DNA of 62,117 nucleotides from Gemmatimonadales bacterium (GTDB lineage: Bacteria; Gemmatimonadota; Gemmatimonadetes; Gemmatimonadales; GWC2-71-9). A program made the translations under genes and the position numbers. The DNA lies in the NCBI GenBank assembly GCA_013694695.1, contig JACDBX010000111.1, positions 1-62,117 on the forward strand, written 5' to 3'. This document shows, in pieces, positions 35,072-37,049 of this stretch (positions are counted from its first letter, which is position 1; the number at the start of each line of letters is the position of its first letter). The notes under the pieces were generated by a model. That model ran no database searches. It was given only the letters and a program-made list of their open reading frames with translations, and had not been told where the DNA came from.

Positions 35072-35103
35072 CGGCGGGATCCCGGAGGTGGAGAGACACA
35101 AAC

Positions 35104-35131
35104 GGCGTCGCCTCGCGCAGGAGGCGGCGCC
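35104..35131 (-). promoter_or_regulatory. 11-bp GC hairpin (one G-U pair) followed on the minus strand by GTTTGTGTCTCTCC, in the queD 5' leader
   Basis: GGCGTCGCCTC (35104-35114) pairs with GAGGCGGCGCC (35121-35131), 6-nt loop. It lies 33 nt upstream of the queD ATG. Function unknown. Confidence 0.3.
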
Positions 35132-35371
35132 GGAGTGGCCGCACGATGAGGGGAGGAACTATCGAAGCCCGGGGAGACAGTCTCGGCGCCCTCTCCGCGT
35201 CGTCCGTCTTCCCCGTGGGGCCTGACGTTGGACGTGGAATGTGGGCCCATCCTCGGACACGTTGGCTCGATAACGTGGATTCCCCACCATCGTCCGGCCT
35301 CGGCTATAATACGCCGCATCATCAGCGCGGTCAATGGAACCGCACCCCCCTCCCCTCAACTCGGCAGCCGC

Positions 35372-35533
35372 ATGATCGAACTCGTCCTTGGTGTCGCCCT
35401 GCTGGCGGTCTGGGGGGTGCTCCAGTTCGTCGTCCAGCCCTCCACGCCGATCATTCACGTGCTGCTTGCAGCAGGCGTCGTGCTCGTGGTTCGCGGCATT
35501 GCCTTGTCCAATCCGGGCACGCCAACGCGGTAG
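35372..35533 (+). CDS. lmo0937-family small membrane protein
   Basis: 53 aa from ATG 35372. Two TM helices with an IHVLLAAGVVLVV core, similar to the about 50-aa lmo0937 family. Confidence 0.5.
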   Translation: MIELVLGVALLAVWGVLQFVVQPSTPIIHVLLAAGVVLVVRGIALSNPGTPTR

Positions 35534-35534
35534 G

Positions 35535-35942
35535 CTAGCGCGCGGCGCCGCCTCGATGCAGGTCTGGCCGCAGCGCGACAGCATCCCGCAGGTAGACATG
35601 CGCCGGCGCAACATCCCAGCGTCGCTCGACGTGGACCAGGACACGCAGGCACCGCGGTAGTGATCCCGGCACGGCGATCTCGGCCGAACAGAGCAGCGGC
35701 ACATCCTCCCACCCTGCCCTGCGCGCCGACTCTGCGGGAAACGCACTGGTGAGGTCGGGTGTCACGGTGAAGATCGCCGACACCAACTCTCCCACCTCGA
35801 AATTGTTGCCGCGGCGAAGCGCCTCCAGAAGCTCGGTCACCGCCAGCGCGATGTCGTCCGGAGTGTCTGCGGGAACCGTGGTTGCGCCGCGCACGGCTCG
35901 GATCCGGGGCAACCGGAACACGCGACCCAGTCGGCCCCTCAT
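35535..35942 (-). CDS. aroH: chorismate mutase, AroH class
   Basis: 135 aa from ATG 35942 (ATGA overlap with the pheA stop). RAVRGATTV...ELVSAIFTVTPDLTSAFPA...GWEDVPLLC...VPGSLPRCLRVLVHV matches the B. subtilis-type AroH fold. Confidence 0.85.
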   Translation of the reverse strand: MRGRLGRVFRLPRIRAVRGATTVPADTPDDIALAVTELLEALRRGNNFEVGELVSAIFTVTPDLTSAFPAESARRAGWEDVPLLCSAEIAVPGSLPRCLRVLVHVERRWDVAPAHVYLRDAVALRPDLHRGGAAR

Positions 35943-36493
35943 GCCGCAGCCACCGCAGCGCTCCGACGGATGACGACAAAGCGCGTGGTGTTGTCGGCGA
36001 GGTCGGCGATGTCCTCCGCGAGCACCACGAGACCATACAGTTCGGCAGCTTCCGCCGACGCCACGGCAGCCCGCGTGAAATCCCGATCGGTGGCGATCGA
36101 TTGCGCTGCAGCGGCTGTGTCCACCACGTCTCGCGAGCTGATCCCACGTTGCGCGAGCCAACCGGCGCATTGCGCGAGCGCGGCAGGATGGCTCTCGGCG
36201 CTCCGGATCATGTCAGGCGTCGCACCCGGCAGCGCCACCAGGCAGAGCACCACCCGAAGCGCGACCAGATCGGCCACCACGACGCCGGACGTGTCCAGCG
36301 CCGCGTGGGCCGCGTCAATCGGTCCGATGCTGCTGTTCTCCACTGGCACCAAGCCGGCGTCGACCGCGCCGTCGCGCACCGCACGAACGACCGACTCGAA
36401 ATCCACCATCCCGACGAGGCCGGCCCCGGGTTGCCACGCCTGCGCGGCGAGGAAACTGAAGGCCCCCGGCACTCCTTGGTACGCGATCCGCAT
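35939..36493 (-). CDS. pheA: prephenate dehydratase catalytic (PDT) domain only, no ACT domain
   Basis: 184 aa from ATG 36493 (MRIAYQGVPGAFS...NTTRFVVI). It ends right after the PDT domain. Confidence 0.85.
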   Translation of the reverse strand: MRIAYQGVPGAFSFLAAQAWQPGAGLVGMVDFESVVRAVRDGAVDAGLVPVENSSIGPIDAAHAALDTSGVVVADLVALRVVLCLVALPGATPDMIRSAESHPAALAQCAGWLAQRGISSRDVVDTAAAAQSIATDRDFTRAAVASAEAAELYGLVVLAEDIADLADNTTRFVVIRRSAAVAAA

Positions 36494-36531
36494 CCCTGCT
36501 CCCTGGCGCCCGACGCGCCGGTGTGGAAATG

Positions 36532-36560
36532 AAAAAAGCCCCCTCGCGATTGGAGGGGGC
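36532..36560 (-). terminator. intrinsic terminator of the pheA-aroH leader (attenuator)
   Basis: The minus-strand RNA reads GCCCCCTC-CAATCGC-GAGGGGGC-UUUUUU. It ends 38 nt upstream of the pheA ATG. Confidence 0.72.
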
Positions 36561-36586
36561 CCGGGCAACTCGCTCGATCGTCTGCG

Positions 36587-36673
36587 CTATCGCATGCGTC
36601 GGTGCCCGGCCCCCTCAGTGAGGTAGGCCGCAAAGAAGAACGCAACGCGATAGGTGCTGGAGTGTGTCATCAT
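36587..36673 (-). CDS. Phe-rich leader peptide (MMTHSSTYRVAFFFAAYLTEGAGHRRMR)
   Basis: 28 codons with TTC-TTC-TTT at 36632-36640 and two Tyr codons. These are the last codons of the 117-aa track ORF. Alternative pairing segments overlap its 3' half. Confidence 0.6.
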   Translation of the reverse strand: MMTHSSTYRVAFFFAAYLTEGAGHRRMR

Positions 36674-36743
36674 CCTGCCGCACGTTACCTTCCGACCCAC
36701 GGGCGCGTCAAGGGGACCGCCGGCACGTTCATCGGGAGACAAC

Positions 36744-37049
36744 ATGCTTGACAGTGGTCCGCTGGCAGCGGTGGGTTGGCTGATATTCGTGCTGGGCCTG
36801 GGAATCATGGGTCTCGCCACGCTCTCCAAGGGTGCGCGGCTCAAGTCCCATGCGCGCCGGGCCGCGGATGCCCTCACCGGGTCGTCGCTGTGCCTTCTCG
36901 CCCTTGCACTGATCGTGACAGGCGCCGGACGCAACGTCACCTACGGCCTGCTCGGCGCCACCGTCCTCGCCATTTTTGCGAGCTGGTACATCGGGCGCCA
37001 TGCGCGCCAGATCGATCGTGCCACCAAGCGTGCGAAGGACAAGCGCTAG
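36744..37049 (+). CDS. hypothetical membrane protein (3 TM helices)
   Basis: 101 aa from ATG 36744, hydrophobic helices, basic C-terminus. No family recognised. Confidence 0.55.
   Translation: MLDSGPLAAVGWLIFVLGLGIMGLATLSKGARLKSHARRAADALTGSSLCLLALALIVTGAGRNVTYGLLGATVLAIFASWYIGRHARQIDRATKRAKDKR

Follow-up and report, generated by a model that had tools for sequence, protein, structure and literature searches.

In this study, we analysed the leader region of pheA in a 62,117-nt stretch of DNA from a Gemmatimonadales bacterium (contig JACDBX010000111.1; this whole stretch is referred to as the window) and find that its minus strand very probably carries a ribosome-mediated transcription attenuator, responsive to Phe and probably also to Tyr, of the operon formed by pheA, encoding a prephenate dehydratase (PDT), and aroH, encoding a chorismate mutase. 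A 28-codon leader open reading frame (ORF) precedes four segments which can pair as 1:2, 2:3 or 3:4 and, as judged from the alignments, 18 other loci share this arrangement and show covariation, far beyond chance. An earlier note on this DNA had given coordinates for the leader ORF, its FFF block, the four segments, the U6 tract, two promoter-like boxes and the pheA ATG at 36493, all of which proved exact upon re-reading of the minus strand. Its interpretation of these elements as an attenuator of the E. coli pheL type is supported by the conserved and covarying mini-ORF, the aromatic codons, the stop codon and the helices 1:2, 2:3 and 3:4.

Leader architecture and energetics of the predicted switch

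The elements of the window, all on the minus strand, are as follows:

36706..36711, minus strand: −35-like box TTGACG; TTGAC stands at the same alignment place in 18 of 19 loci
36682..36687, minus strand: −10-like box TAACGT (family consensus TAnnnT), following the −35 box after an 18-nt spacer; the T, A and final T columns are conserved
36587..36673, minus strand: leader ORF MMTHSSTYRVAFFFAAYLTEGAGHRRMR, 28 codons plus TAG (ATG at 36673, TAG at 36589-36587)
36652-36650 and 36625-36623, minus strand: Tyr codons of the leader, the second (TAC) inside segment 1
36632..36640, minus strand: regulatory Phe codons TTC TTC TTT (leader codons 12-14), from re-reading of the minus strand
36629-36620, minus strand: segment 1 GGCCTACCTC (as listed feature CGGCCUACCUC, 36620..36630), the 5' arm of the 1:2 hairpin, from the minimum free energy (MFE) fold and RNAalifold
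36604..36616, minus strand: segment 2 GAGGGGGCCGGGC, partner of segment 1 or, in the antiterminator, of segment 3
36553..36566, minus strand: segment 3 GCCCGGGCCCCCTC, also written GCCCGGGCCCCCUC, which supplies the 3' arm for the antiterminator or the 5' arm for the terminator
36532..36545, minus strand: segment 4 GAGGGGGC (36545-36538) and U6 tract (36537-36532), from terminator scan and MFE fold
36499..36503, minus strand: pheA Shine-Dalgarno sequence GGGAG, 5 nt before the ATG; the GGAG column is conserved in the alignment
35939..36493, minus strand: pheA, prephenate dehydratase of 184 amino acids, PDT domain only (PF00800, E 2.6e-45)
35535..35942, minus strand: gene of an aroH-type chorismate mutase (CM_1; PF07736, E 4.4e-40), its start overlapping the pheA stop (ATGA)

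The window leader contains 3 Phe and 2 Tyr among its 28 residues, and segment 1 starts 1 nt past the third Phe codon. Pattern scan and MFE folding both place an intrinsic terminator, composed of an 8-bp GC stem and U6 (36560-36532), between the leader ORF and pheA. The unconstrained MFE fold holds the 1:2 hairpin together with the terminator hairpin, with a z-score of −3.37 against shuffles. For the free 148-nt leader, this best fold amounts to −59.6 kcal/mol, and the fold in which the antiterminator (2:3) is forced to −57.3 kcal/mol, only 2.3 kcal/mol above the MFE, so that the two conformers are nearly balanced. Masking of the 5' part up to 36622, as by a ribosome with the third Phe codon in its A site, leads to a fold of −41.3 kcal/mol in which the antiterminator is formed and the terminator is absent, while a mask reaching only to 36625 leaves the terminator in place (−44.6 kcal/mol). 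When the mask instead represents a ribosome positioned at the stop codon, 1:2 and terminator are again found (−41.8 kcal/mol). The claim that a stalled ribosome masking segment 1 would set segment 2 free for pairing with segment 3 is thus reproduced, as far as geometry is concerned, by masked folding, which switches the MFE structure of the window from terminator to antiterminator. The terminator hairpin itself has an energy of −19.2 kcal/mol.

Two further structures were seen in this region. On the minus strand, CUAUCGC at the Tyr-Arg codons (36650-36655) is complementary to GCGAUAG at the Arg-stop codons (36587-36593), and in the MFE fold of the window this outer helix lengthens the 1:2 hairpin into a long stem around the Phe codons. 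We did not count it in the element, since several relatives either lack it or have it broken, e.g. by an uncompensated G-to-A change in locus L083. In addition, a small GC hairpin, GGCGC-GUCGG-GCGCC (36505-36519, minus strand), is situated downstream of the terminator and ahead of the pheA Shine-Dalgarno sequence. The close relatives have comparable GGCGC(C)/GCGCC hairpins at the corresponding position, as have L003, L086 and L087, whereas the group of L001 does not.

Conservation, codon register and covariation

The regions upstream of dehydratase genes were scanned in 80 genome loci, 80 metagenome loci and six further contigs, with the metagenome scan with PDT alignment adding only two useful loci, L086 and L087. 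The same architecture was found before ACT-less pheA-aroH in 18 further Gemmatimonadota loci, the dehydratases of which are 43-90% identical to that of the window. Four contigs of close relatives (dehydratase 77-90% identical) share the gene order sbcC, GNAT, small divergent gene, pheA, aroH, queD, and the intergenic identity among close relatives is 89%. The 14 more distant copies, with PDT proteins ~43-62% identical, come from loci named Gemmatimonadota, Gemmatimonadales, Gemmatimonadaceae or Longimicrobiales, or from metagenomes. The earlier note had named missing conservation of the FFF mini-ORF or of the alternative stems in related genomes as a possible refutation; the mini-ORF with its aromatic codons and all three helices are kept at PDT identities of 43-62%. 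Examples of the leader peptides are:

L001: MPRALFTATYRFAAFLAEGVGHRRTR
L002: MSRAYRFPFAFAAFLVERVGGRRAR
L004: MQRAAYRFAFVFTAFLPEGVGHRRMR
L170: MRLATFVFAFTYRAFLREEAGHRRMR
L074 (Longimicrobiales): MQRATRFFGLSFTFATRPAGRGRRRSRD

Frame, start and stop of the leader are preserved in all 19 loci, including L081 despite an in-frame deletion of 3 nt. Counted from the base at which pairing of segment 1 begins, nearly every sequence has aromatic codons starting at −22, −16, −10, −4 and +5 nt, to which the window adds one at −7. Of the 16 non-redundant sequences, 15-16 encode Phe or Tyr at positions −10, −4 and +5. Codon use at these positions varies synonymously (TTT/TTC, TAT/TAC), so that the class of amino acid is kept and not the nucleotide. 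Over all 19 leaders (n=495 residues), Phe makes up 14% and Tyr 4.8%. The consecutive arrangement of Phe codons emphasized previously holds for the window and, in L084, for an FFF block moved by one codon (AFFFD). It does not extend to most relatives, where Phe codons alternate (F-x-F-x-F) and are interchangeable with Tyr. The leader of L083 reads FAFVFAAFSF, and the Tyr codon TAC within segment 1 of the window (36625-36623) is replaced by Phe in most relatives. Downstream, a distance of exactly 15 nt from segment 2 to the start of the stop codon is kept in 17 of 19 sequences.

This register bears on the possibility that the terminator/antiterminator switch is set by an RNA-binding protein, a small ligand as in riboswitches or uncharged tRNA, with the ORF being incidental. 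Two conformers near-equal in energy are indeed reminiscent of riboswitches, and the C-terminal half of the peptide would owe its conservation to the RNA helices alone, since the AAFL and EGxGH codons constitute segments 1 and 2. However, RNA-only constraints do not predict aromatic codons further upstream that stand in fixed register and vary in their third base, and the fixed distance between segment 2 and stop codon and the retention of frame, start and stop in 19 loci, even through an in-frame indel, also speak against this possibility. At the gathering threshold, Rfam yielded nothing relevant in the whole window or in 13 related loci, and at E up to 10 the region 36400-36800 returned no Phe_leader, no T-box and no riboswitch, with only chance matches to the terminator hairpin. 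We consider such a ribosome-independent switch improbable.

The peptide itself, with a consensus of x-AYRFxFxFAAFLxEGxGHRRxR across ~50% PDT identity, is more conserved than classical leaders, which could point to an arrest peptide, comparable to TnaC or SecM, that responds to free Phe or Tyr instead of tRNA starvation at the codons. Yet RNA pairing or a role as regulatory codon explains most of the conserved positions, the N-terminal part varies freely, and Phe and Tyr replace each other at the regulatory positions. The logic would furthermore be inverted, as arrest by abundant Phe would favour the antiterminator and turn synthesis on when it is unneeded. The chances of an arrest peptide appear to us marginally lower still than those of a switch set without the ribosome.

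Alternative pairing further predicts that the helices change in a coordinated manner, which is what we observe. In the 19-sequence alignment, 95.7% of the cells of the terminator state (1:2 and 3:4) are paired, compared to 46-64% in slid controls, and 12 of its 20 pairs change on both sides, with none of 500 shuffles reaching the observed values. The 1:2 helix taken separately is 95% paired with both-side changes in 6 of 10 pairs, the 3:4 terminator helix is 96% paired across relatives, and RNAalifold, run unguided, recovers the same two helices. In L083, the inner 1:2 helix carries a double compensatory change from CCUC/GAGG to CUCC/GGAG. The 13-bp antiterminator 2:3 is paired in 95.7% of cells of a 17-sequence alignment (49-69% when slid), with compensatory changes in seven cells at two columns. 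If the exact 2:3 pairing of the window is imposed on all sequences, 82.8% are paired, a lower score which results from the single bulge of 2:3 being placed differently between lineages. Where segment 3 reads CCCUCUC instead of CCCCCUC, segment 2 reads GAGAGGG, segment 1 UCUC and usually segment 4 GAGAGGG, and such coordinated changes across segments 1-4 are the pattern predicted by alternative pairing.

The conserved antiterminator is also informative with respect to a conventional gene for a small protein that carries a terminator of its own, or a terminated RNA of ~140 nt acting as small RNA in trans, in which case any control of pheA would be a by-product. The conserved peptide sequence would suit a functional product, and trans roles of attenuator RNAs and leader peptides are documented in Sinorhizobium (rnTrpL/peTrpL; PMC6614838 and PMC7298713). 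However, a competing antiterminator has no role in a simple unit of gene and terminator, the element always lies directly 5' of pheA-aroH in the same orientation despite flanking genes that vary between lineages, and a trans role would add to attenuation in cis and not replace it. As a replacement for attenuation, we rate a trans-acting or stand-alone unit as low as the arrest peptide.

Putative promoter, proposed mechanism and points in doubt

Among the 19 loci, only the divergent L168 is without TTGAC, and a TAnnnT box is found 17-19 nt downstream of the −35 position in all of them. The −10 box is separated from the leader ATG by 5-9 nt (8 nt in the window), and a Shine-Dalgarno sequence before the leader was found in none of the 19 loci, while the pheA start has the conserved GGAG. 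The simplest reading of this short spacing and of the missing Shine-Dalgarno sequence is that a leaderless or near-leaderless mRNA probably serves for translation of the leader, in support of the transcript start next to the leader ATG that was proposed earlier. In the excerpt of a survey (PMC10783764), Gemmatimonadetes are among the lowest entries of a per-class column which is unlabelled there and which we take as the share of genes with a Shine-Dalgarno sequence.

We propose a model in which transcription of the operon is tuned to how much charged tRNA-Phe, and probably also tRNA-Tyr, is available. Transcription would start at or within ~3 nt of the leader AUG, and a ribosome would translate the 28-codon leader while RNA polymerase moves on. 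With Phe-tRNA being scarce, the ribosome would stall at the Phe codons 36640-36632 with its footprint over segment 1, leaving segment 2 free to form the 13-bp antiterminator with segment 3, which would block the terminator and allow the polymerase to enter pheA-aroH. With Phe-tRNA being plentiful, the ribosome would reach the TAG, at its conserved distance of 15 nt beyond segment 2, the 1:2 hairpin would re-form behind it, and segments 3 and 4 would pair (8 GC-rich bp and U6), ending transcription ~45 nt before pheA. Since a ribosome at the stop codon resides just 3' of segment 2 and not on it, termination in Phe excess is more likely to proceed via re-formation of 1:2. The pheA product of the window is without an ACT domain, and the chorismate mutase of the operon is a protein of its own (CM_1). 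For a dehydratase that lacks the Phe-binding ACT domain, sensing of Phe at the level of transcription would make sense, and the attenuator offers an explanation of how prephenate dehydratase could be under end-product control despite the missing allosteric domain. Short dehydratase homologs of ~180-187 amino acids form a family, with source names Gemmatimonadota or Gemmatimonadales. Short PDT forms similar to that of the window also occur in Brevundimonas.

Several observations weigh against this model. Ribosome-free nascent RNA up to segment 3 already favours 2:3 at equilibrium (−44.8 kcal/mol), so that termination without stalling would depend on either the ribosome or the kinetics of folding. 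Several relatives have longer terminator stems and retain the terminator as MFE structure even when segment 1 is masked. In every case, however, the RNA reaching from the loop behind segment 1 through segment 3, comprising 2:3 and the hairpins between its arms, is more stable than the terminator hairpin alone. U-tracts are poor in some relatives, e.g. L007. The covariation counts come from related sequences, and their signal is partly inherited. A consensus promoter scan called no promoter at the leader, which is attributable to the weak −10 box (TAACGT), and leaderless initiation is deduced solely from spacing. The sequencing runs in which the locus was found are of hypolith and soil metagenome DNA only, the organism being known only from metagenomes, and our search found it in no RNA run.

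Poor U-tracts, together with a leader that appears leaderless as in mycobacterial cases (bioRxiv 10.1101/834739) and the small GC hairpin (36519-36505) abutting the pheA Shine-Dalgarno sequence, could also suggest translational control, in which the structures gate the pheA ribosome-binding site or translational coupling as for the mycobacterial leaderless Cys small ORFs. However, the 3:4 hairpin of the window, with U6 behind it, is located ~30 nt ahead of the Shine-Dalgarno sequence, no predicted structure sequesters the latter, and hairpin and U-rich tail are kept in nearly all relatives. Control at the level of translation is therefore the reading we hold least probable. Each of the four alternatives to attenuation of transcription leaves something unexplained, be it the conserved register of codons, the fixed position of the stop or the antiterminator and its conservation.

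Related systems, wider family and genomic surroundings

Leader-peptide attenuation is a textbook mechanism which is documented almost only in Proteobacteria and Actinobacteria, and Gemmatimonadota are a common, little-studied soil phylum. For Actinobacteria, leader-peptide attenuators were reportedly predicted by comparative genomics, from leader ORFs and alternative helices, by Seliverstov et al. in 2005, and the element described here resembles these cases in being, very probably, a classical attenuator of a high-GC phylum outside the Proteobacteria. The closest counterpart in mechanism is the pheL-pheA attenuator of E. coli (Zurawski 1978; Gavini and Pulakat 1991, as cited in PMC11802643), which likewise features a short leader ORF with Phe codons before pheA, exclusive helices 1:2, 2:3 and 3:4, an intrinsic terminator before the structural gene and the logic, proposed here too, of read-through upon stalling at Phe codons. 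There is no detectable homology of sequence or structure, with Rfam Phe_leader unmatched at E up to 10. The Gemmatimonadota leaders are longer (25-28 codons compared to ~15 in pheL), probably leaderless and without Shine-Dalgarno sequence. Phe codons of pheL stand in runs, whereas most of the Gemmatimonadota relatives alternate them, with exchange for Tyr, and the enzyme under control consists of PDT alone, lacking ACT and accompanied by a separate AroH, in contrast to the AroQ-PDT-ACT P-protein of E. coli. In a survey of pheL, 53 unique genes were reported in gammaproteobacterial genomes, with Bacteroides and Desulfobacterium autotrophicum as the only other potential users of one (PMC3082878).

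In terms of mixed Phe/Tyr codons, the element resembles aroR-aroF of C. glutamicum (Neshat et al. 2014, in PMC11802643), where a leader containing Phe-Tyr-Phe, ribosome stalling and an aromatic operon are combined in a host which is also a high-GC non-proteobacterium, of a different phylum. However, aroR-aroF controls DAHP synthase and the window element would control pheA, with no homology evident. A similar relation exists to the mycobacterial polycysteine small ORFs ('Cys ribulon', bioRxiv 10.1101/834739), in which a sensory small ORF is first in a leaderless transcript (as suggested here by the spacing), codons for the amino acid of the pathway stall the ribosome and several loci share the design. 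Those act on translation, with the stalled ribosome unmasking a downstream ribosome-binding site, whereas the terminator/antiterminator pair of the window indicates transcriptional control. Open-access full-text searches returned no paper joining Gemmatimonadetes with leader peptide and attenuation, and none relevant for Gemmatimonas with attenuator. The mechanism is a known one, proposed here for an uncatalogued family without Rfam match, in a new phylum, in probably leaderless form and paired with an ACT-less enzyme. For annotation, one unannotated small ORF and a cis-regulatory RNA family are gained. The spacing suggests that leaderless translation is used for regulatory small ORFs in Gemmatimonadota, and the fixed codon register and stop spacing, as a natural experiment, bear on the geometry of the ribosome footprint in attenuation.

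A covariance model built from 17 sequences, with L074 and L168 outside the seed, recovers these two divergent loci with E 2.6e-6 and E 2.6e-9, respectively. Other Gemmatimonadota loci have different small ORFs rich in Phe, Tyr and Trp, each followed by a terminator, with those of L057, L049, L096, L071 and L114 being weaker matches of the model, and with peptides such as MTHAPYQAGRFYFAFYFYGYPMG..., MSLDKLALRAPVLFTGYYYYRLF... and MRSFAATYSYFYFTPSRMGHGVGNSCA:

L057:1518-1901, two aromatic leaders in tandem before a DAHP synthase operon
L049:5309-5418 (minus strand), aromatic leader before a DAHP synthase operon
L054:4712-4820 (minus strand), aromatic leader
L096:966-1064, aromatic leader directly before a dehydratase gene
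L071:2774-2883, aromatic leader directly before a dehydratase gene
L114:69-194, aromatic leader directly before a dehydratase gene
L024:1898-2016, aromatic leader
L045:495-600, aromatic leader

The window element is the pheA-specific branch of this broader aromatic attenuator set in Gemmatimonadota. A reverse-strand control for the scan for aromatic leaders was discarded, since it is not clean, divergent Gemmatimonadota genes bearing aromatic leaders of their own. An Acidobacteriota locus (L047:2853-2960) contains a leader-like ORF MHQTAQAAGFVFTRSRRAGLGMA and a hairpin directly upstream of a full-length dehydratase gene, so that the leader design may reach beyond Gemmatimonadota, this candidate being weaker (E 3.5e-4, only two Phe codons). 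Tentatively, and with somewhat less than even confidence, we put forward a phylum-wide aromatic regulon read by ribosomes. In it, leaderless mini-genes rich in Phe, Tyr or Trp would be held in a 6-nt register to a terminator/antiterminator switch before pheA-aroH, DAHP synthase and other aromatic genes, with at least one Acidobacteriota locus included. The switch of the pheA branch would replace the lost ACT feedback, and the 15-nt stop distance would reflect a terminating ribosome that helps to set the fold.

Upstream of the leader lies a divergent gene:

36744-37049, plus strand: gene of a 101-amino-acid membrane protein with a weak LapA_dom match

As this gene is divergent, the 250-nt intergenic region is assigned to pheA. 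The start of the divergent gene and the −35 box of the leader are only 33 nt apart, which means that both promoters must overlap back to back. The terminator hairpin was also considered as a terminator of this gene, which we rejected because the gene is transcribed away from it and no T-tract follows when the hairpin is read on the plus strand.

At the other end of the operon, a GC hairpin followed by GUUUGUGU is located at 35095-35131 (minus strand), just before queD and ~400 nt after aroH. This hairpin is a partial match to the attenuator covariance model (E 0.34) and could be either the terminator of the pheA-aroH transcript or a leader of queD. On the plus strand, a small hydrophobic ORF (MIELVLGVALLAVWGVLQFVV..., ~35370-35535) converges on the end of aroH, and small ORFs of opposite strand are called by gene callers at the aroH-end position in L081, L082 and L084.

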